A DNA stretch of 24,000 bases. Origin: Promethearchaeota archaeon (GTDB lineage Archaea; Asgardarchaeota; Lokiarchaeia; Sigyniarchaeales; SOKP01). Position 1 is the stretch's first letter, and each line of letters starts with the position of its first letter. Positions 6,215-16,185 of this stretch are shown one piece after another. Location of the stretch: positions 5,260 through 29,259 of the forward strand of contig JAHLWH010000075.1 of NCBI GenBank assembly GCA_019058015.1, in the 5' to 3' direction. Under the pieces are notes generated by a model that was not told the origin of the DNA, ran no database searches, and saw only the letters and a list, made by a program, of their open reading frames with translations. The position numbers were made by a program, and so were the translations under genes.

Positions 6215-7606
6215 ATGAGTGAACTTGAGAAGGAGAGTAGTGTCTCAAACTTAAACATGGCCTCTTACAGTATGGCAGAATTTATATACATGGTATTTAG
6301 TGGAATCTTCGGTTCGTTTTTCATTTTTTACTGGGAAACTGAAGTGGGATTAAATATATGGATTGTGACGCTTGGTTATATAATTTATGCAATCTGGAAT
6401 TCAATTAATGATCCTCTTGTTGGTTACTTCACTGACAAACCCAATAAACTTTGGAAAAAATATGGTAAGCGATTTCCGTTCATTATTATTGGAGGAATTC
6501 CTTCAATTTTTATGCTTGCACTTATTTTTACTCCACCTTACTTGGATCCCATAACCGGAGCATGGATATATTTTGGATGGATATTATTATCCTCATGCAT
6601 GTATGAGCTATTTTACACAATTTTCCAACTTAGTAATGCGGCATTATTTCCAGATAAATTTCGTTCTGATAATGAACGAAGAAAGGCAGGTTTCTTTCGC
6701 ATGGGATTAGGACTTGTGGGTACTGCAGTTGGGTTAATCATTCCTCCACTGTTTATTTCTTATGGAGATCGCCAATCCTATACTAATATGGCATGGATAT
6801 TTGTTGTTCTTAATCTGGTCTTTTTCTTGACAATTATTCCTGGACATAGAGAATCAGCGCAAATGAGAGAAAGATATATGCAAGAACCAAGTGCTGAAAA
6901 GAAGTTGCCGTTTTTGAAAACAATGAAAATCGTGGTTACTCAGAAGAATTTTATTGTATATATGATTGTTTTTCTATTTGATGGAATTATCGGTGCGTGT
7001 CTAGTAGGATCTATACAATATGCTACTAAATATATATTACTGGAGGACCCGACAATGTCTATTATCGTTTTAGCCGGATTTCTTTTAGGTTCTTTAGGAT
7101 CGATATTCTTTTGGCTTATTTTTTCACAAAAGTTAAATAATAATAGAAAAATGTTAATAATTGGCGTTTTTCTAAATACGATCTTCTTATTTCCATTTAT
7201 GTTTGTACAAGGATTACTTGGTTTTGTTATAGCTGCAGTAATATTGGGAATTGGAGGAGGTGCGCTGAGAATAGGAAGAAGTCCTGTTTTAGGTGACACG
7301 ATTGATGAAGCTACTGTCAAATCAGGTCAAAGACTTGAGGGTTCTTATATGGGAGTGTACGCTTTTTTTGTTAGGTTTGGACTTATTGGCCAAATATTGA
7401 TTTTTGCAATAGTACATGAATTAACTGGATTTAATGCAGATGTACTAATTCAAACTGAATTAGCTCTATTTGGAATACGTGCTCATTTAGCATTGATACC
7501 AATGATCTTAACTCTCATTGGTTTAGTCATTTTCATTTTTGTGTATGACCTTACTCCTGAAAGAACAAAAGAAATTAAAGAAAAATTAAAAGAATTAAAT
7601 TTATAA
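6215..7606 (+). CDS. MFS-type sugar:cation symporter, GPH (glycoside-pentoside-hexuronide, MelB-like) family
   Basis: 463 aa with about 12 hydrophobic segments. An N-terminal NDPLVGYFTDK motif is typical of GPH transporters. Confidence 0.8.
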   Translation: MSELEKESSVSNLNMASYSMAEFIYMVFSGIFGSFFIFYWETEVGLNIWIVTLGYIIYAIWNSINDPLVGYFTDKPNKLWKKYGKRFPFIIIGGIPSIFMLALIFTPPYLDPITGAWIYFGWILLSSCMYELFYTIFQLSNAALFPDKFRSDNERRKAGFFRMGLGLVGTAVGLIIPPLFISYGDRQSYTNMAWIFVVLNLVFFLTIIPGHRESAQMRERYMQEPSAEKKLPFLKTMKIVVTQKNFIVYMIVFLFDGIIGACLVGSIQYATKYILLEDPTMSIIVLAGFLLGSLGSIFFWLIFSQKLNNNRKMLIIGVFLNTIFLFPFMFVQGLLGFVIAAVILGIGGGALRIGRSPVLGDTIDEATVKSGQRLEGSYMGVYAFFVRFGLIGQILIFAIVHELTGFNADVLIQTELALFGIRAHLALIPMILTLIGLVIFIFVYDLTPERTKEIKEKLKELNL

Positions 7607-7613
7607 TTTTTTT
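7607..7613 (+). terminator. oligo-T tract immediately after the transporter stop codon
   Basis: A T7 run starts 1 nt after the TAA at 7604-7606, and further T-runs follow. This is an archaeal oligo-T termination signal. Confidence 0.3.
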
Positions 7614-8039
7614 CTTTTATCTTATTTTATTTTATTTTTTTTATTACATTATCATGCCAAATAAATTACGTAGACTCACAAAATTACAAATGATTTTTTT
7701 CTGAATAAATTAGAAAAATTAGTAAAAGAAGCTAAACTTGGACTAAATGAATTAGCGAAAACTTACCCAATTTCTAAAGAGGATTATGAATTTGAAATGT
7801 CTTGGTGGAATAAATACTAAATCTTTCTTAAGTATTTAAAGAGGAGAAAAAATTTCACCATTATATAAAAAAGTCGAAAATATCGCCGAAAAAATCATAT
7901 CTTACATTGGCTGAATTTTCAAATTTTTATCATTAAGTTTAAATAACAATTTAATAAACTTATAACTGTTTTTTTAAAAAAATTTTTTAAAAAATATTAG
8001 GGTCTTTTAAATTTAGATTTTGTTAAAAGTCAAAAAAAA

Positions 8040-8429
8040 CTATTCAAATTCTATCACTGTCCCGCACATACTACATATATTTTCCCCCTTTTTAACTTCT
8101 GCTCCACAAAAACGACAATAGAGTATTTGTTCACTATATATTATGGGCGTTTCTGGGAGTATTGTTGTTTGAGACACACTCTGAGCGCGTTTCCAATTAG
8201 GTGGATAACTAAGAATTCTTGTGGTTTTAAGAGTCTTTTGGTTACATATATCGCAACGTCCTCTTTTTAGATTTCTACTGCAAGAATTGCAAATAACCCT
8301 CTCACAATTGGGACATAAGCGAACTTCAACCCATGGATTTTTTTTTGCAATATCTCTTCCACAAATATCACATGGTAGTGGGGGCTTCGGTTCTTTATCA
8401 ACCTTAAAAAATTTCTTTATGAAAGACAT
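8040..8429 (-). CDS. zinc-finger protein: N-terminal C4C4 RING-like cross-brace pattern plus C-terminal zinc ribbon
   Basis: 129 aa. The N-terminal cysteine pattern is C20-x2-C23-x15-C39-x2-C42-x4-C47-x2-C50-x8-C59-x2-C62. The C-terminal pattern is C105-x2-C108-x10-C119-x2-C122. It lies 22 nt downstream of the ESCRT-III gene on the same strand. Confidence 0.7.
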   Translation of the reverse strand: MSFIKKFFKVDKEPKPPLPCDICGRDIAKKNPWVEVRLCPNCERVICNSCSRNLKRGRCDICNQKTLKTTRILSYPPNWKRAQSVSQTTILPETPIIYSEQILYCRFCGAEVKKGENICSMCGTVIEFE

Positions 8430-8451
8430 TTTTAGATTTTTAATTTAATTT

Positions 8452-9099
8452 TTAGTCATCAGATTCTTTCAATTCTTTAAGCTCATTTTCTAGATCTTTA
8501 ATTCGTTGATCCCCACCCACTGTTGGGAGTTGTATTCCTGTTTCAACCGAGATTTCAGCATCGATCTCGCCTAAAACATTCATTACCTCTTCATTCGAAA
8601 CACTTGTATCAACATTAATGTTTTCAATTCCATCTGCAGTAATTTCTTCGGTAACTTGGAAGTCTTCAATTCCGATATCAATATCTTTGATTGTTTCGGT
8701 TATTTCAGGAATAGATATCTGTGATTTTAATCCTGAAACGGAACCAGCTATTGCTTTCATAATTCCAGCAACATCTTTAATTGCGGAGGCTTGTTCTAAC
8801 TTAAATTGCAATCCTTCAAGATTTAATTTAAAGGTTGAAATTCCTTTTGACCATTTTTTAAATTGTAAATAACCTCGGGCATGAACTTCAGCACCTTTCA
8901 TATCCCCTTCTTTTCGCAATTTTACAGCTTTAGTTCTTGCCTGTTTTGCTTTCGCTTCAAGTTTTTTTGCTTGTCTTTCTAAGCGCTTGTTAAAGATTTT
9001 AAGTTTAACGGTAACGGATCTAATATCCCGATCTTTTGATCTACCACCACTTAACCAACCACTTACGTCTTTTAGAAAACCCAAAATGATTCTACTCAA
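8452..9099 (-). CDS. ESCRT-III family protein (Snf7 superfamily, Vps2/24/46-like)
   Basis: 215 aa. It has a basic N-terminal helical hairpin (KLKIFNKRLERQAKKLEAKAKQARTKAVKLRKEG) and an acidic C-terminal half. The C-terminal IKDLENELKELK resembles a MIM1 motif. The start is TTG (9097-9099), preceded directly by an in-frame stop. It is divergent from vps4. Confidence 0.85.
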   Translation of the reverse strand: MSRIILGFLKDVSGWLSGGRSKDRDIRSVTVKLKIFNKRLERQAKKLEAKAKQARTKAVKLRKEGDMKGAEVHARGYLQFKKWSKGISTFKLNLEGLQFKLEQASAIKDVAGIMKAIAGSVSGLKSQISIPEITETIKDIDIGIEDFQVTEEITADGIENINVDTSVSNEEVMNVLGEIDAEISVETGIQLPTVGGDQRIKDLENELKELKESDD

Positions 9100-9244: not shown

Positions 9245-10462
9245 ATGAGTTCTTTAGATTCTAAGTTGTTTTCTTTTGCAATGAAAGAAGCAAAAGAAGC
9301 AGTTGAGTATGATAAAAAGGCTGAATATCAAAAAGCCATTAATAAATATAGTAGAGCAGCTGAAATATTAATTCAATTTGCAAAATACAATAAAAATCCA
9401 AGTTTGCAAAAACTATGCCAAGAAAAAATTCACGAATATGTCTCCCGTGCTAAAACATTAAAAAGAAGTTTGAAACCTTATATAAAAGGAAGGATTTCAA
9501 CTCGTAAGAGAGTAACTAAAAAGGGAATAGATTCAGAAGAAATCGAAGAAGAGGAGATTTTAACCAAAGAGCAACAAGAACTTAGAGAAACCATATCAGG
9601 AACAATTATTACGGAAGTTCCGAATATCCGATGGGAAGATATTGCTGGTTTAACAGATTGTAAACAATCACTTAGAGAAGCAATAGTCTTGCCAATAATG
9701 AGACCAGAATTATTTACCGGTGCTAGAAAGCCATGGTCTGGTATTCTTTTATATGGTCCTCCTGGTTGTGGAAAAACTCTGCTCGCTCAAGCGGCAGCAA
9801 CAGAATGTGAAGCAACTTTTTTTAGTGCATCAGCTGCTGAATTATTATCAAAATGGCTTGGGGAAAGTGAGAAATTAATTAGTTCATTATTTAAATTAGC
9901 AAGACTTGAAGCACCAAGTATCATATTTTTTGATGAAATTGATTCGATCACGACTTCGAGGGGATATGGTTCGGAAAGTGGTGGAGAGAGAAGAATTAAA
10001 ACTCAATTATTAGGTGAAATTCAAGGACTTAAATCAAGGACTGAAAAATTACTTTTAATTTTAGGTGCAACAAATCGACCTTGGGATATTGATACAGCAA
10101 TGTTGCGAAGATTTGAGAAAAAAATTTATGTCCCTATCCCAGATGAAGAAGCGAGAGAAGCAATTTTTAAAATACATACAGCTGGGGTAAATCTCTCACT
10201 TACAGATGATGATTTTAGGGAACTTGGAGAAAGAACTGCGGGATATTCCGGATCTGATATTGCTAATGTCTGTAGAGAAGTGATTATGAGACCGATAAGA
10301 GAGTTAGATATGAGTGGAAAAATAACTGCCGAAGCAGAGGAAATTATCGTTAGAGATGTAAATATAGAAGATTTTAACAAAACACTTAAAAAAATTAAAC
10401 CAATTGTATCTGAAAAAGAAATAAAGAGATACCATGAGTGGTTTGAACAATTTGGTGAATGA
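9245..10462 (+). CDS. vps4: Vps4-type AAA+ ATPase (N-terminal MIT domain plus a single AAA cassette)
   Basis: 405 aa.
- MIT-like three-helix N-terminus (AKEAVEYDKKAEYQKAINKYSRAAEILIQFAKY...YVSRAKTLK).
- Walker A: GPPGCGKT.
- Walker B: IIFFDEID.
- Second region of homology: ATNRPWDIDTAMLRRF.
- Vps4 C-terminal helix region (YHEWFEQFG). Confidence 0.95.
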   Translation: MSSLDSKLFSFAMKEAKEAVEYDKKAEYQKAINKYSRAAEILIQFAKYNKNPSLQKLCQEKIHEYVSRAKTLKRSLKPYIKGRISTRKRVTKKGIDSEEIEEEEILTKEQQELRETISGTIITEVPNIRWEDIAGLTDCKQSLREAIVLPIMRPELFTGARKPWSGILLYGPPGCGKTLLAQAAATECEATFFSASAAELLSKWLGESEKLISSLFKLARLEAPSIIFFDEIDSITTSRGYGSESGGERRIKTQLLGEIQGLKSRTEKLLLILGATNRPWDIDTAMLRRFEKKIYVPIPDEEAREAIFKIHTAGVNLSLTDDDFRELGERTAGYSGSDIANVCREVIMRPIRELDMSGKITAEAEEIIVRDVNIEDFNKTLKKIKPIVSEKEIKRYHEWFEQFGE

Positions 10463-10491: not shown

Positions 10492-11373
10492 ATGGAAAGA
10501 CAAAAAGCTAAAGAAGTCCCAAAAGAAGAAATTGCTGTATCAGATGAAAAAATTGAAGAACTAAGGAAAGAATTAGAAAGTCTTAAAAAAAAAAAAGAAT
10601 TAAAAGTTAAAGCAGAACAACAAAAGGTTAAGGAAAAAGAAGGGCTAACAATTTCTATTGATTTAGATGATATAGAGAAAAGATTAGATGCTATAGAAGA
10701 ATTTCTTGAAGAAAAAACTCAAAAATCTGAGGTTCTAATTAAAACAAAAGATTTAGATGAGATTGAGAAAGAACTTCAGTCTATCGAAAGCGAAATTGTA
10801 ATTGAACCAAAGGTTATAGAAAAGGAATTAACTTCTTATGAAAAATTAATTAAAGAGCATCCATGGCTTGAAGAAACTAGATATGAATATATGTTTTCTG
10901 CTCCAGATAAAAAGAAAAATGCTAAAGATTATCAATCTTGGTTAATTGAGTGGAGCCAAGTAATTTATGATTATGCCCGAATATCGATATTGCACGTTCT
11001 CTATATTAGAAAATTAAATGCTGAGAAACCATTTTCTAAACTACGCAATAGAGATGGCGCAATCGCCGCAATAGCTCAAAAATTAGTGGATCAAAATATT
11101 GGAGTATGGTTAAATAAAAAAAAGAAAGAAGCATTAAGAATTTATTGGAAAACTTTGGATGAATGGGCAGAAGAAATGCTTGATTGGGCACGGGAAAACG
11201 GTAAATTAGAACCAATTCTAACTTTTGAGATCAGGGAGTCTGGAGAGCTTTTCGCAGAATTACCAAAAAGGGATTTGACGCGGATATTTAAAAGATTAGA
11301 AAAAGAAGGCAAAGGAGAAGTAATTAAATCTGAAGATGGAGATATTACCTTTAAAATAAATTTAAATTATTAG
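10492..11373 (+). CDS. Vps25-like ESCRT-II subunit (tandem winged helix) with a ~130-aa K/E-rich N-terminal extension
   Basis: The C-terminal ~160 aa align by eye with eukaryotic Vps25/EAP20. For example, LRIYWKTLDEWAEEMLDWARENGKLEPILTFEIRE matches LIMWRRPEEWGKLIYQWVSRSG..VFTLYEL, and the end GEVIKSEDGDITFKI matches AEIITVSDGRGVKF. It lies 29 nt downstream of vps4. Confidence 0.8.
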   Translation: MERQKAKEVPKEEIAVSDEKIEELRKELESLKKKKELKVKAEQQKVKEKEGLTISIDLDDIEKRLDAIEEFLEEKTQKSEVLIKTKDLDEIEKELQSIESEIVIEPKVIEKELTSYEKLIKEHPWLEETRYEYMFSAPDKKKNAKDYQSWLIEWSQVIYDYARISILHVLYIRKLNAEKPFSKLRNRDGAIAAIAQKLVDQNIGVWLNKKKKEALRIYWKTLDEWAEEMLDWARENGKLEPILTFEIRESGELFAELPKRDLTRIFKRLEKEGKGEVIKSEDGDITFKINLNY

Positions 11374-11374
11374 A

Positions 11375-12091
11375 CTATGAAATTGAAGGAAAATACCACT
11401 TCTGTCCTCTTAAATAGGATTCGTCTTTTTTGGCAAAACCGCTAGCTTCTAAAGAATTTAATGCCCTCAAGACTCTTTCTTGGGACCATGATAATTCTGA
11501 GCATGCATCTTCTAAAGAAATAAAACCTTTTTCTGAAGCTAATGAAATTACTTTTGCCTCATCATCGGTATGTTGAATGGAGAAAAATCTAACTTCAATA
11601 ACTCCATCATCAAGCTCTCGAATATTAGGAATTACTTTCCTTTTCTTTAAAAGATACATAGCTTTAATTACATCTTCAATCTCTAAATGATTTATGAGAA
11701 TACCTGTATTCACAATTTCAAATACGTCAGAGATCGGCATAATACCCCCAGTTTCTTCTTTTTCCATTAAAACTCTTTGGTATGCTAACATTCCTAATTT
11801 TTCATGATCAATTTTTCTCTTTTTCCTTAAGACGTCGATTTCTTCAATTCTTTCAGTAATAATTCGCGAAGTGGGTATATCAAATTTCCTCTGAAGTTCT
11901 TTAATTTCATCTCTTAATTCTGGATCTAAAGCAAGAATTACTCCATGTTTGATTGCAATTTCTCTTATTTTGTCTTTAGCAAATTCTCTTGTTTTTGCTT
12001 CTTCTTCAAGTTCTTTTTGTTTTAACTCTATGCCCTTCCTCTTCATTGCTTCTTTTAGATCAATATCATCCTCTATTTTGCGAATCCCCAT
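11375..12091 (-). CDS. Vps22/Vps36-like EAP30-domain ESCRT-II subunit
   Basis: 238 aa. The segment GGIMPISDVFEIVN...VIKAMYLLKK...LASEKGFISLEDACSELSWSQERVLRALNSLEASGFAKKD...KWYFPSI parallels SNF8/Vps22 (GGLITLEELHQQV...LAEKNGYVTVSEIKASLKWETERARQVLEHLLKEGLAWLD...YWLPALF). It is convergent with the Vps25-like gene, with a 1-nt gap. Confidence 0.8.
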   Translation of the reverse strand: MGIRKIEDDIDLKEAMKRKGIELKQKELEEEAKTREFAKDKIREIAIKHGVILALDPELRDEIKELQRKFDIPTSRIITERIEEIDVLRKKRKIDHEKLGMLAYQRVLMEKEETGGIMPISDVFEIVNTGILINHLEIEDVIKAMYLLKKRKVIPNIRELDDGVIEVRFFSIQHTDDEAKVISLASEKGFISLEDACSELSWSQERVLRALNSLEASGFAKKDESYLRGQKWYFPSIS

Positions 12092-14686: not shown

Positions 14687-15073
14687 TTAGCATAAATTCT
14701 TTTTGATTTTATTACGCGCACCAGGTAAATATTTTTTTATCTTTTTAATCCATCCTAAGGGGATTTTTGTATTTTCGAAAATTGTTTTATTATCTGCTTC
14801 TTCGAGTTGATCGAAATAAAAATAGCCATTTTTGATAAATTGAGCTAATCTCTTAGTACCCAGATACTTTATACAATCTTTATATTTCCTTAAACTTATC
14901 GTATGAATCAATTTTTCCGCCTGAGCCGGGAAATGAGAAATATACCATTTAAGATTTTTATCAGTAATTACAATATAATCTTTTCCCAGTTGTTCGCCAG
15001 TATATATATTAAAACCCAATCGTGCCAAGTTTTCTCTAATTGTGGGAATATTTACATTCAATTTTTTTCTCAA
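14687..15073 (-). CDS. hypothetical HTH-like protein; the frame is open for 88 more codons upstream (to 15337) with no canonical start
   Basis: The ORF-track start is the TTG at 15071-15073. The same frame has no stop and no ATG/GTG/TTG between 15074 and 15337. It is in phase with the 15338-15991 gene. An HTH-like segment reads YAITQLRKKLNVNIPTIRENLARLG. Confidence 0.5.
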   Translation of the reverse strand: MRKKLNVNIPTIRENLARLGFNIYTGEQLGKDYIVITDKNLKWYISHFPAQAEKLIHTISLRKYKDCIKYLGTKRLAQFIKNGYFYFDQLEEADNKTIFENTKIPLGWIKKIKKYLPGARNKIKKNLC

Positions 15074-15337
15074 TTGAGTTATAGCATATTTTTTTTCAAT
15101 TGATGAAAGCTCATTAATGAATTTAAATATAAATTTTGTTTCAGGAGAACTTTCAATATTATTTTGAAAAAATTGAATTTCATTATTAGAGTTTAAATAA
15201 TACTCCTCTAATTCTCGATATTCTTCAAATTCATTCTCAAGATTTTGAAGTATACTTTTAATTTGACTCCTTTTTAAAACTCTAGATTCTTCTAATTCCT
15301 CAAACTCACTATCGATTTTTTGAAATATAGTTGCTAT

Positions 15338-15991
15338 TTATTGCTGAATATCTTCAATTCCGTTATTGATATTTTCTATACAATCATGAACTTCTTTTTT
15401 AGAGATAGAGTAAAGACCATCTTTTTCTTTATTTTTAATTTTAAAAATAAATGAGAAATGTTTAGAGAAAAAATCTCTACCCAAAACCAGTTGAGATATA
15501 TTTTCATTTTCATTCTTTTTTAATTCAATATCTAATCCAATTTCAGAAGATTCGTATTGTTTAATCCTTTGGTTAAATACATCTATGTTATTTACACTAA
15601 AAGTTCCTAAGATTAAATTAAATTCACCTTGATTGAGATCGATAATAATATGATCTTCTACTAAAGGAAGATTATTACTCCTTTCGATTAGAATGTTATA
15701 TATCTTTCTTAATAAAATCATAAGGGGTAGAGTTTTGAAGCCATCGATTTTGATCTTGTCATTATAAATACCATTCCATAACTCTTTATTTAAACTGAAT
15801 TCAAAATTTATTCCTTCTAATTTTTCTATATTTTTTTGAAGTTCAAGTGAAACATTTTGAAATTTTTTTAAGTTATCACCTAATTCTTGTATCCGTGCTC
15901 CCAAATTATGATTTAACAAATCCTTATCTACAAGAAATCTCTCTACTTCTTTAAATTCCATAAAAAAATACTCTAAATATTCAGTTTCCAT
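15338..15991 (-). CDS. hypothetical protein (possible N-terminal part of a gene interrupted by an in-frame TAA)
   Basis: 217 aa counted from the ATG at 15989-15991 (the TTG at 16000 is an alternative start). It ends at the TAA at 15338-15340. I recognise no domain. Confidence 0.6.
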   Translation of the reverse strand: METEYLEYFFMEFKEVERFLVDKDLLNHNLGARIQELGDNLKKFQNVSLELQKNIEKLEGINFEFSLNKELWNGIYNDKIKIDGFKTLPLMILLRKIYNILIERSNNLPLVEDHIIIDLNQGEFNLILGTFSVNNIDVFNQRIKQYESSEIGLDIELKKNENENISQLVLGRDFFSKHFSFIFKIKNKEKDGLYSISKKEVHDCIENINNGIEDIQQ

Positions 15992-16185
15992 AAAAATCAA
16001 ATAAGTTTTTTCTACTTTTTTTACATATTATTCACAATCAGAAATTTTTATGAATATAATATGTGAATATTTTATATTTGAACAAAATACAAATAGTAAT
16101 TTGATATTAAATTTAATTGCGTTAATGAGTATAAATTAAAATTTGATAATCATTTTAAATAGAATAGAATTTGGGCAATATATCA

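Follow-up and report, generated by a model that had tools for sequence, protein, structure and literature searches.

What is the small, cysteine-rich protein encoded directly behind an ESCRT-III gene in a Lokiarchaeial genome, and does it work with the ESCRT machinery? Asgard ESCRT systems serve as models for the origin of eukaryotic membrane remodelling and of its control by ubiquitin, and the core subunits have received most of the study. The gene in question was examined within a stretch of DNA of 24,000 nt (the window; Table 1). The ORF listing placed it at 8040..8429 of the minus strand, with an ATG start, a TAG stop (8040-8042) and a product of 129 aa, which is named 'hypothetical protein' in the databases. 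A literature search found no paper on this protein family, in line with an earlier note on this DNA that had regarded it as uncharacterised. As that note had also stated, the gene follows the ESCRT-III gene on the same strand at a distance of 22 nt: the TAA of the upstream gene lies at 8452-8454, and the zinc gene opens with an ATG at 8427-8429. The neighbour could be refined to an A-type ESCRT-III (Vps2/24/46- or CHMP1-3-like), its best PDB matches being CHMP2A, the CdvB Vps2-like protein, CHMP1B and Vps24. In the accessible part of Table S2 of PMC10936438, its Lokiarchaeum GC14_75 orthologue is assigned to the Vps24 family cog.001760.

Table 1. Features of the ESCRT-III/zinc gene locus, in window coordinates (residue numbers refer to the 129-aa protein)
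Feature	Position	Strand	Basis or remark
PfkB-family kinase	3582..4601	-	Pfam; tblastn, 81% identity to PfkB of locus L003
DUF2961	4976-6058	+	Pfam; inserted between zinc gene and PfkB
MFS transporter	6215-7606	+	Pfam; inserted between zinc gene and PfkB
T8 run right after the zinc-gene stop	8032..8039	-	candidate archaeal oligo-T terminator
C-terminal zinc ribbon C-x2-C-x10-C-x2-C, residues 104-129	8043..8120	-	Pfam
Variable linker, residues 83-103	8121..8183	-	poor conservation; dN/dS 0.4-0.9
Basic/aromatic extension, residues 63-82	8184..8243	-	conserved columns; net charge +5
C4C4 eight-cysteine module, residues 20-62	8244..8372	-	spacing, RNF4 profile match, AF2, Foldseek
Proline-rich motif (PKPPLP), residues 14-19	8373..8390	-	P-x-[PL]-[PN]-[LI]-P
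N-terminal peptide (MSFIKKFFKVDKE), residues 1-13	8391..8429	-	short, amphipathic, basic; alignments
Spacer, ESCRT-III stop to zinc-gene ATG	8430..8451	-	22 nt, AT-rich, no T5 or longer run
A-type ESCRT-III (Snf7 family; Vps2/24/46- or CHMP1-3-like)	8452..9099	-	Pfam PF03357, 62.9 bits
Vps4 (MIT + AAA + Vps4_C)	9245..10462	+	Pfam; divergent from ESCRT-III
Vps25-like ESCRT-II subunit	10492..11373	+	Pfam PF05871, 46.5 bits
EAP30/Vps22-like ESCRT-II subunit	11375..12091	-	Pfam PF04157, 44.2 bits

The translation contains 12 cysteines, eight of them spaced C20-x2-C23-x15-C39-x2-C42-x4-C47-x2-C50-x8-C59-x2-C62 and the other four forming a separate C-terminal C105-x2-C108-x10-C119-x2-C122, exactly the pattern that had been claimed for it. 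All 12 were invariant across seven homologues with 56-90% identity (alignment A1), and the eight N-terminal ones were also invariant, with near-constant spacing, in 14 sequences reaching down to about 27% identity (alignment A2). The dN/dS ratio was 0.14-0.22 for the whole gene and 0.06-0.12 for the zinc module, with much higher values in the linker. Because all 12 cysteines are invariant and the overall dN/dS is this low, the gene is genuine and evolves under purifying selection. Its product is a small, basic protein (computed pI 9.05, net charge +9) with three zinc sites, in which an amphipathic peptide, a proline-rich motif, the eight-cysteine module, a basic/aromatic extension, a relaxed linker and a generic ribbon follow one another.

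The eight-cysteine module had been proposed to be a cross-brace, and several observations point in that direction. In a PDB sequence search, profile A2 matched the RING of RNF4 over 55 residues with E-values of 4.7e-7 to 2.5e-6 (single domains), a result to be read with the caveat that scores of cysteine-rich sequences are inflated by composition; the alignment covered the entire module in one register. An AF2 model of the domain (pLDDT 83.2, pTM 0.67) showed a beta-beta-alpha-beta order, with strands at residues 36-39 and 44-46, a helix starting at residue 48, in the third cysteine pair, and a third strand. When the model was compared with the PDB using Foldseek, 16 of the best 50 matches were explicitly RING, U-box or E3 proteins, and many others were TFIIH or spliceosome chains, which we take to be the MAT1/Tfb3 RING and the Prp19 U-box. 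Against BFVD, about 22 of the best 50 were explicitly of RING type (probability up to 1.0, TMq up to 0.58). The E-values of the best structural matches were all 0.018 or higher, with TM values of 0.4-0.58, and are thus non-significant; together with the fact that no curated RING model was passed, this is a point on the negative side. The sub-threshold Pfam matches of the family fell on Prok-RING_4 (PF14447), whose 46 profile positions (1-46) were all covered by family members at 22-24 bits, and on other RING-like models (zf-RING_2, DUF1272, ANCHR-like B-box, FYVE and RH_dom). The window protein itself reached 13-17 bits overall (Prok-RING_4, 13.6-15.2; zf-RING_5, 13.2-14.5), under the Pfam RING cut-offs of 27-27.9, and the best family member reached 24.3 bits for Prok-RING_4 (cut-off 27), with no RING, FYVE or B-box model passed.

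The RING consensus reads C-x2-C-x(9-39)-C-x(1-3)-[HC]-x(2-3)-[CH]-x2-C-x(4-48)-C-x2-C. Six of the seven spacings of the module fit it; the exception is the x4 between ligands 4 and 5, where the canonical range is 2-3, although C4C4 RINGs and PHD/FYVE types with x4 are known. The likeness to RNF4 (PDB 3ng2, 4ppe, 2xeu and 4ap4), which recurred among the structural matches, extends to ligand pairs 1, 3 and 4 and to a hydrophobic V-[YF]-C core. RNF4 is, however, a C3HC4 RING with C-x-H as its second pair, while that of the zinc protein is C-x2-C, is shifted N-terminally and is followed by x4. The zinc protein also lacks SIMs, and in its ESCRT-linked clade the Pro behind ligand 7 and the Arg behind ligand 8 are both missing. 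The CNOT4 type suggested in the earlier note did not hold. The C4C4 RING of CNOT4 likewise has eight cysteine ligands and x4 between ligands 4 and 5, but its second pair is C-x-C rather than CxxC, and no CNOT4 chain was present among the 60 best PDB sequence matches or the best 50 structural matches. Overall, the module is most likely a RING-like cross-brace, that is, a binuclear treble clef in which pairs 1+3 and 2+4 would each hold one zinc. The cross-brace proposal is supported by the RNF4 match, the order of the modelled elements and the RING-dominated Foldseek lists, as a predicted fold with non-significant structural E-values and scores below every Pfam RING threshold. The family is unclassified within the RING-like superfamily, and with this module the prokaryotic RING-like domains would gain a new family.

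The same cysteines could also be arranged as two sequential ribbons or knuckles (pairs 1+2 and 3+4), making the whole protein a triple zinc ribbon. The x15 and x8 spacings are each compatible with a ribbon, DZR gave sub-threshold Pfam matches in 12 of the 14 family members, and zinc modules of TFIIE-alpha, Nop10, MetRS and PolD appeared among the Foldseek matches. Moreover, Makarova et al. 2024 (PMC10936438) described three-Zn-ribbon modules at the N-termini of cog.011556 (Znr_CC_PH_SB) and cog.002441, which are Asgard-specific ESCRT-I/II-like proteins (compared here by description). Such an arrangement is nevertheless doubtful: the AF2 helix lies at the third cysteine pair, as in site 1 of treble clefs and RINGs; RING/U-box structural matches, spanning 47-64 columns, were far more frequent than ribbon matches; the RNF4 alignment runs across both putative ribbons in a single register; and the four residues between pairs 2 and 3 would make a very short inter-ribbon linker. 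A FYVE-type PI3P binder was considered and rejected. FYVE fingers, which bind PI3P, are defined by WxxD, R(R/K)HHCR and RVC motifs. The x2, x4, x2 spacing is FYVE-like, and Pfam FYVE matched 9 of the 14 family members below threshold (best E 0.0026), yet neither WxxD nor the characteristic basic motifs occur; the second cysteine pair is embedded in VEVRLCPNC in the window protein, and distant relatives have [MIV]-G-[ILVM]-C there.

The separate ribbon at the C-terminus, also described in the earlier note, exists and is by its sequence a generic zinc ribbon. In the window it marginally passed Zn_Ribbon_1 (PF13240; 25.2 bits, cut-off 25) and scored 25.5 bits for DZR (PF12773), below the cut-off of 27.3; the ribbons of relatives passed Pfam ribbon cut-offs with 27-35.4 bits. 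An NZF-type ubiquitin-binding finger was also considered for it. The NZF/RanBP2 signature is W-x-C-x2-C-x3-N-x6-C-x2-C plus the ubiquitin-binding residues T-F...Phi; the x10 spacing fits, but the Trp, the Asn and the Thr-Phe are missing, the sequence being [YF]-C-x-x-C-G-[AGE]-[EK], and this assignment was dropped. Among the family members, Pfam Zn_ribbon_RanBP reached just 18 bits, in one distant relative, and in the Foldseek comparison with NZF/RanBP2 fingers TRABID NZF1 matched over 25 residues with a non-significant E>0.8.

Outside the zinc modules, the conserved segments differ in how far they extend through the family. In the basic/aromatic extension, K65, T66, K68, T69, R71, I72, Y75, P76, P77, W79 and R81 were invariant in alignment A1, a [YFW]-P-x-x-[WFY] motif was found family-wide with P76 invariant in alignment A2, and a strand at residues 67-69 appeared in the structure models. 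The linker is probably disordered (residues 83-99, pLDDT <50). The N-terminal peptide and the proline-rich motif were found in the ESCRT-linked clade only, the motif being missing in distant homologues (A1 vs A2). In the alignments the peptide has the clade consensus M-x-F-[ILMF]-[KD]-[KR]-[FIL]-[FL] and is similar to MGFLKN, with which the neighbouring ESCRT-III orthologues begin. Its residues 1-13 were modelled at pLDDT <50, the helical hydrophobic moment of the first nine residues was 0.62-0.74 in four of five clade members, and it may bind membranes. Within the proline-rich motif, P14 and P19 were invariant in alignment A1. A proline-rich MIM2 is known in Vps20/32/60-type ESCRT-III proteins (PMC7240154), to which PKPPLP might be likened.

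The order Snf7-then-zinc gene with a gap of 19-22 nt was seen in the window and in loci L001/2, L003/4, L005/6, L008, L018-20 and L029 (spacers measured in L001, L003, L005, L008 and L029); every relative at least 56% identical with enough flanking sequence had the zinc gene 19-22 nt after an A-type ESCRT-III gene. A metagenome scan with the ESCRT-III query gave five close loci. In relatives, PfkB directly follows the slot behind ESCRT-III; in the window, insertion of DUF2961 and the MFS transporter has moved it about 3.4 kb away, and L007 is arranged likewise. The ESCRT-III/zinc pair stayed together despite this 3.4-kb insertion. Behind the zinc-gene stop, the window, L003, L005 and L008 have a T-run and L001 has none; T-runs thus lie 3' of the zinc gene, but not of the ESCRT-III gene, in four of the five loci. 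The T8 run of the window would close a two-gene unit as its terminator.

This linkage is confined to one narrow Lokiarchaeial clade. In sister Lokiarchaeia with the Vps22-Vps25-Vps4-ESCRT-III-PfkB cluster, the zinc gene was absent within +/-6 kb (L023-L028), and the slot between ESCRT-III and PfkB was either empty or held a Rab-like small GTPase. As these sisters keep the whole cluster, ESCRT function there does not need the zinc protein. Peptide patterns of the clade matched three of about 185,000 species genomes. A full-length profile search of 1.84 billion representatives returned 959 matches, nearly all of them unrelated repeated zinc ribbons found via the C-terminal module, and about nine relatives of the same architecture. 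Distant homologues (about 30% identity) have this architecture in non-ESCRT surroundings, either on ORFan-rich contigs or beside a transposase, indicating that the ancestral function of the family was not ESCRT-specific. No PHROG or Pfam match was found on the ORFan-rich contig L014, which carries one of them, and viral-contig scans with three queries gave no match. The ESCRT synteny proposed earlier therefore stands for all close relatives with enough flank and fails beyond their clade, where homologues are unlinked. The restriction to one narrow group suggests that the protein is probably an ESCRT accessory factor of this lineage and does not belong to the Asgard core; it is not among the ESCRT components discussed in the accessible part of PMC10936438.

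A tentative reading, which we place a little short of an even chance, is that this RING-like three-zinc protein assists or regulates the ESCRT-III/Vps4 machinery as a lineage-specific partner, and that its gene is co-transcribed with ESCRT-III, closing a two-gene transcription unit. The RING-like module and the basic extension could form a protein-interaction surface, a candidate target being the C-terminal half of ESCRT-III, which is strongly acidic (computed net charge -20, against +9 for the zinc protein) and complementary in charge. The N-terminal peptide and the proline-rich motif could serve as a tether, either to the membrane or to the MIT domain of Vps4. Tight linkage, a pair that survived an insertion, the placement of the T-runs, clade-specific N-terminal motifs and complementary charge all speak for a partner, as does the alternative occupant of the slot, since a Rab-like GTPase is also a regulator of membrane-traffic type. 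Absence from ESCRT-bearing sisters and the non-ESCRT contexts of distant homologues speak against a partner, and adjacency within a single clade could stem from one insertion event inherited without functional coupling.

This last scenario has its own formulation, in which a generic small zinc-finger protein, for instance a nucleic-acid-binding or regulatory one, without any ESCRT role, was inserted once in a permissive slot and then inherited. Small basic zinc proteins are often nucleic-acid binders. The zinc protein is strongly basic, the slot is variable (empty, Rab-like GTPase or zinc protein), distant homologues lack ESCRT linkage, and there were weak profile matches to the archaeal ribosome-associated 'Zn-ribbon RNA-binding protein' (E=0.003-0.008), eS27 and Nop10. 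In the same genome pairs, moreover, the zinc protein evolves faster than ESCRT-III (56-69% vs 77-90% identity). This explanation appears rather unlikely, as a spacer of 19-22 nt was kept at protein identities down to 56%, the pair outlasted a rearrangement immediately downstream, and the N-terminal peptide and proline-rich motif were gained in the clade alongside the ESCRT location. Further, the slot does not look random, given that its other occupant is a protein of membrane-traffic type.

Equally to be weighed is a true C4C4 RING-type E3, which would engage the E2~ubiquitin of Lokiarchaeia and, at ESCRT sites, modify ESCRT-III, Vps4 or cargo with ubiquitin. Many RINGs contact E2 through the residue between the first two cysteines and that four positions after the sixth; the zinc protein has a hydrophobic I22 at the former and a conserved hydrophobic L54 at the latter, and in sequence it comes closest to the catalytic RING of RNF4. 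Against this, the seventh cysteine is followed in the ESCRT-linked clade by Asp in place of the usual Pro, and the eighth by Asn, Asp or Gly, where many active RINGs have the Arg/Lys 'linchpin'. The fourth ligand is also displaced relative to RNF4, with C39 aligned to a non-ligand residue and the RNF4 His to Lys or Arg, and several C4C4 RING-like domains, MAT1 for one, are not known to act as ligases. Neither the window nor any related locus examined contained a ubiquitin, E1 or E2 gene, and the window had no other gene of the ubiquitin system. According to the accessible part of PMC10936438, Lokiarchaeum does encode ubiquitin-like proteins, E1 and E2 (Table S2), but a different gene, for a 'membrane associated RING finger', is already present in its ubiquitin operon. 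A small Helarchaeia RING E3 encoded with Asgard ESCRT genes was reported to ubiquitylate an ESCRT-I protein (bioRxiv 10.1101/2023.07.25.550441), and its ubiquitin/UEV-Vps23 cluster is a precedent for RING-ESCRT coupling before eukaryotes; that gene, compared here by description, is found in several Asgard classes and is clustered with ubiquitin, E1, E2 and Vps23 rather than placed behind ESCRT-III. On balance, an E3 function is rather unlikely, and any link of the zinc protein to ubiquitin or cargo is purely conjectural.

The accessory-partner reading can be sharpened into a dedicated C4C4 RING ligase or adaptor wired to the late-acting ESCRT-III/Vps4, with a membrane-anchored peptide, a MIM2-like motif on the MIT domain, and binding of E2~ubiquitin or of the acidic tail that would control filament assembly or turnover. 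In this specific form it is distinctly unlikely; if true, it would be a minimal prokaryotic counterpart of the eukaryotic ubiquitin-dependent and ANCHR-type control of ESCRT-III, and the Rab-like GTPase in the sister slot would suggest that upstream regulators are interchangeable. Elsewhere, ESCRT-III/Vps4 is recruited or regulated by small non-core proteins such as the crenarchaeal CdvA, a PRC barrel with a coiled coil and no zinc, and the eukaryotic ANCHR/ZFYVE19, which combines FYVE and B-box zinc modules with a Vps4-binding motif. The ANCHR-like B-box model of Pfam gave weak matches in 11 of the 14 family members; the zinc protein has no significant homology to ANCHR or CdvA and is likened to them by its possible mode of action only. 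More broadly, the position just 3' of the A-type ESCRT-III gene is a hot spot, filled by a RING-like zinc protein or a Rab-like GTPase depending on the Lokiarchaeial lineage, both candidate regulators. Failing any such role, it would be one more small zinc protein, and the narrow distribution of the gene limits its bearing on eukaryogenesis.

Two minor observations concern the ESCRT-III gene itself. In locus L021, a fused Snf7::Zn ORF had been considered as a 'Rosetta stone' and was set aside: it arose with a 106-nt deletion that removes the first cysteine pair, and it is taken as a rare variant or an assembly artefact, because the independent contig L029, with a near-identical protein, has two separate genes. 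In the window, ESCRT-III ends in a MIM1-like DLENELKELKE segment, and its true start is probably near 9084, where the orthologues begin with MGFLK.

The translation of the zinc gene showed eight cysteines in the N-terminal module (C20-x2-C23-x15-C39-x2-C42-x4-C47-x2-C50-x8-C59-x2-C62) and four in the C-terminal ribbon (C105-x2-C108-x10-C119-x2-C122), exactly as described in the earlier note; the 22 nt reported there between the ESCRT-III TAA stop codon and the zinc-gene ATG were also found, and that observation is confirmed. Close homologues formed six clusters with 56–90% identity, one of which contains 33 member sequences under the NCBI name 'hypothetical protein [Candidatus Lokiarchaeota archaeon]', and all 12 cysteines were invariant among them in the alignment. 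Pairwise dN/dS values between the window and four orthologues were 0.14–0.22 for the whole gene, 0.06–0.12 for the eight-Cys module plus its extension, and 0.4–0.9 for residues 83–103. The zinc protein is therefore constrained in both zinc modules and at the N-terminus, and relaxed in the linker. Its character is basic (pI 9.05, net charge +9).

The genes around the zinc gene form a typical Lokiarchaeial ESCRT cluster, and genome matches place the organism group in Promethearchaeota, that is, Lokiarchaeia. Entries in Table S2 of Makarova et al. (PMC10936438) list the same cluster order for Lokiarchaeum GC14_75, with an ESCRT-III of the Vps24 family. The solved structures closest to the window ESCRT-III were CHMP2A, a CdvB Vps2-like protein, CHMP1B and Vps24, making it an A-type paralogue. 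Its annotated TTG start (9099) probably lies five codons ahead of the true one, since orthologues start with MGFLK. Across the same genome pairs, ESCRT-III is far better conserved than the zinc protein (77–90% versus 56–69% identity). A conserved coiled-coil protein is also part of this neighbourhood in relatives (L001, L003, L008 and L024); its window orthologue is broken by an in-frame TAA where L003 has Gln, the result of a nonsense mutation or a sequencing error, or the mark of a pseudogene. The tRNA detected with Rfam, presumably intron-containing, was not reported by ARAGORN, which found no tRNA in the window.

Features of the window and of related loci retrieved for comparison (L-numbers)
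Feature	Locus and position	Strand	Remarks
tRNA	window 3451-3550	-	100 nt; Rfam 42.1 bits
PfkB orthologue	window 3582-4601		set apart from zinc gene by insertion
DUF2961 and MFS_2 sugar-transporter genes	window 4976-7606	+	inserted between zinc gene and PfkB
Insertion junction	window 7607-8039		433 nt, AT-rich, non-coding
Zinc gene	window 8040-8429	-	ORF, 129 aa
Snf7-family ESCRT-III	window 8452-9099	-	upstream of zinc gene, same strand; Pfam 62.9 bits
Vps4	window 9245-10462	+	ESCRT cluster
Vps25-like	window 10492-11373	+	ESCRT cluster
EAP30/Vps22-like	window 11375-12091	-	ESCRT cluster
NIP7, RsmB, CYTH genes			window ESCRT cluster
Coiled-coil orthologue	window 14687-16000	-	no Pfam family
In-frame TAA in coiled-coil orthologue	window 15338-15340		
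Coiled-coil protein	L003:2483-3787		~434 aa
Slot GTPases	L023:6776-7330; L027:6788-7351; L028:6409-6972		slot corresponding to window 8040-8429
ESCRT-III/zinc fusion	L021:802-1731		309 aa
FYVE-like coiled-coil protein	L016:404-2680	-	758 aa

In all relatives with at least 56% identity and enough flanking sequence, the zinc gene immediately follows the ESCRT-III gene, at a distance of 19–22 nt (syntenic loci: the window, L001/L002, L003/L004, L005/L006, L007, L008, L018–L020 and L029), and a PfkB kinase gene comes next. The window differs from all other relatives in the two genes inserted ahead of PfkB, which it has in common with L007 (same strain, 97.7% nt identity); the ESCRT-III/zinc pair is intact despite this insertion. 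T-runs follow the zinc-gene stop at four of five loci and the ESCRT-III stop at one, a pattern that would fit a two-gene transcript. At L021 ESCRT-III is fused in frame to the zinc protein by a 106-nt deletion, which takes out the stop codon and spacer together with the opening 24 codons of the zinc gene, among them those of the first CxxC pair. Since L029 encodes an almost identical zinc protein in a gene of its own, the fused form is either an assembly artefact or a rare variant.

The identity of ESCRT-III orthologues breaks sharply, from 77–98% in the zinc-gene clade to at most 63% in the next Lokiarchaeial group, which is very abundant and of which three members were inspected. All three keep the whole cluster (CYTH-RsmB-NIP7-Vps22-Vps25-Vps4 / ESCRT-III ... 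PfkB). The slot between ESCRT-III and PfkB is an empty 105-nt gap in L024–L026 and holds a Rab/Arf-like small GTPase of 184–187 aa in L023 and L027/L028; no zinc-family ORF was found within ±6 kb at these sister-lineage loci. This slot appears to collect different candidate regulators, and the zinc gene is a lineage-specific insertion into it, not a conserved Asgard ESCRT component. The earlier note asked for a check of synteny across Asgard genomes: it is strict inside the narrow clade, while sister and distant loci are not syntenic, so that the loss of synteny in related genomes that would speak against the proposal was found in half measure.

A profile search without word index of 1.84 billion representative proteins yielded 959 matches, which consisted almost entirely of generic zinc ribbons in repeats, drawn by the C-terminal module. 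About nine proteins shared the architecture of the zinc protein at ∼30% identity (P0012, P0014, P0031, P0045, P0048, P0105, P0156, the 208-aa form P0070, and P0076, with a duplicated N-domain). In 14 aligned N-domains the eight cysteines were invariant, spaced x2, x15-17, x2, x4, x2, x7-12, x2 and followed by a [YFW]-P-x-x-[WFY] motif. Of these distant homologues, one comes after unrelated genes without Pfam matches (L010–L012), one lies among the ORFans of a 13-kb contig (L014) and one beside a DDE transposase (L016); scans of viral contigs found no family member. None of the 19 genes called on L014 (13,150 bp, GC 27–32%, carrying P0014) had a Pfam match, nor did any of ten tested have a PHROG match; this contig could represent an unknown virus or mobile element with a low-GC archaeal host.

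There is precedent for RING-type proteins in the ESCRT/ubiquitin clusters of Asgard archaea: a RING E3 from Helarchaeia is reported to ubiquitylate UEV-Vps23 (bioRxiv 10.1101/2023.07.25.550441), the Lokiarchaeum ubiquitin operon has a gene entered in Table S2 of PMC10936438 as 'membrane associated RING finger', and three zinc ribbons have been described in ESCRT-I/II-like proteins specific to Asgard archaea (PMC10936438). None of the ESCRT surveys searched described a small RING-like gene in the position behind ESCRT-III. We class the zinc family, compared with these Asgard RING and three-ribbon proteins by description only, as an unclassified RING-like family of which one clade was recruited to an ESCRT-III operon.

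Two motifs were present in this ESCRT-linked clade alone. The first, an N-terminal M-x-F-[ILMF]-[KD]-[KR]-[FIL]-[FL] peptide, is similar to the MGFLKN with which the neighbouring ESCRT-III begins; its first nine residues have a helical hydrophobic moment of 0.62–0.74 in four of five clade members, and it could serve as a membrane anchor. The second, P-x-[PL]-[PN]-[LI]-P, lies just ahead of the first Cys and might be MIM2-like. Asgard Vps20/32/60 carry proline-rich MIM2-like motifs modelled as binding the Vps4 MIT domain, and Vps2/24/46 a leucine-rich MIM1 (PMC7240154); the window ESCRT-III ends in a MIM1-like DLENELKELKE. Its C-terminal half carries a net charge of -20, as against +9 for the zinc module with its extension, making an electrostatic contact plausible. 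The likeliest role of the zinc protein, proposed tentatively at slightly under even chances, is that of a lineage-specific partner of ESCRT-III/Vps4 with an accessory or regulatory function. With its variable slot and clean domain anatomy this hypothesis is easy to test, but the distribution is narrow and nothing so far links the protein to ubiquitin. That the zinc protein is a functionally unrelated hitch-hiker, as the changing slot and the scattered distant homologues might suggest, is unlikely; the clade motifs and the intact gene pair point the other way.

In Pfam, the eight-Cys module gave sub-threshold matches only: DZR (12 of 14 members), ANCHR-like B-box and RH_dom (11 each), DUF1272 and FYVE (nine each), and zf-RING_2 and Prok-RING_4 (eight each; the latter reaching 24.3 bits at most, where the cut-off is 27). 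Against PDB sequences the family profile matched the RNF4 RING first (E=4.7e-7, single domain), with an alignment that keeps one register across ligand pairs 1, 3 and 4; C39, however, is paired with a residue that is not a ligand, and the His of RNF4 lies opposite Lys/Arg. The MID1 B-box, the RUFY1 FYVE, the BRE1 and TRIM37 RINGs and some archaeal zinc-ribbon proteins followed (E=1e-3 to 1e-1). Positions that touch E2 in many RINGs gave a mixed picture: I22 and L54 are conserved hydrophobic residues, but the ESCRT-linked clade has Asp in place of Pro behind the seventh Cys, and Asn/Asp/Gly behind the eighth. The window ribbon scored 25.2 bits with Pfam Zn_Ribbon_1 (cut-off 25; relatives clearly above). 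It is no more like NZF/RanBP2 fingers than any 25-residue ribbon, lacking their Trp, Asn and Thr-Phe residues, and Pfam, structural and residue comparisons gave no support for ubiquitin binding. A true E3 ligase is a rival reading of the protein and seems unlikely, about as much so as the hitch-hiker.

AlphaFold2 gave a mediocre model of the full-length protein (pLDDT 66.8; residues 1–14 and 83–99 below 50) and a better one of residues 14–85 from an 11-sequence alignment (pLDDT 83.2, pTM 0.67). The latter has strands at 36–39 and 44–46, a helix that begins at residue 48, within the third Cys pair, and a further strand at 67–69, which in the model is the RING/treble-clef order. Foldseek returned no significant match for the module (best E 0.1 in PDB, 0.018 in BFVD). 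Among the best 50 PDB matches, 16 were explicit RING, U-box or E3 domains (TRIM37, TRIM32, TRIM23, cIAP2, RNF4, MEX-3C, PRC1, MDM2, APC11, RBX2 and Prp19), and many other chains, from TFIIH and the spliceosome, we take to be the MAT1/Tfb3 RING and the Prp19 U-box. In BFVD, about 22 of the best 50 matches were large DNA virus proteins explicitly of RING type (TMq up to 0.58, probability up to 1.0, rmsd 1.8–2.4 Å, ∼50 columns). The module is thus likely to be a RING-like cross-brace, its interleaved zinc ligation being inferred from the structural matches. Two sequential ribbons, for which the zinc modules of TFIIE-alpha, Nop10, MetRS or PolD in a minority of the best 50 PDB matches would speak, are unlikely.

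The earlier interpretation is partly supported: the cross-brace agrees with the structure prediction, which did not give two independent knuckles, and synteny holds in the clade, but neither the wider synteny nor the CNOT4 type does. The CNOT4-specific assignment was rejected, with no CNOT4 chain among the best matches and a CxxC second pair here. FYVE and PHD domains share the x2/x4/x2 pattern of the module, but the PI3P motifs of FYVE are absent from the alignments. A 758-aa protein on L016, close to P0012 and separated from it by the DDE transposase gene, has an N-terminal membrane segment, a FYVE-like module (C-x2-C-x15-C-x2-C-x4-C-x2-C-x14-C-x2-C) and a long coiled coil, combining the cysteine spacing of the zinc family with a different architecture.
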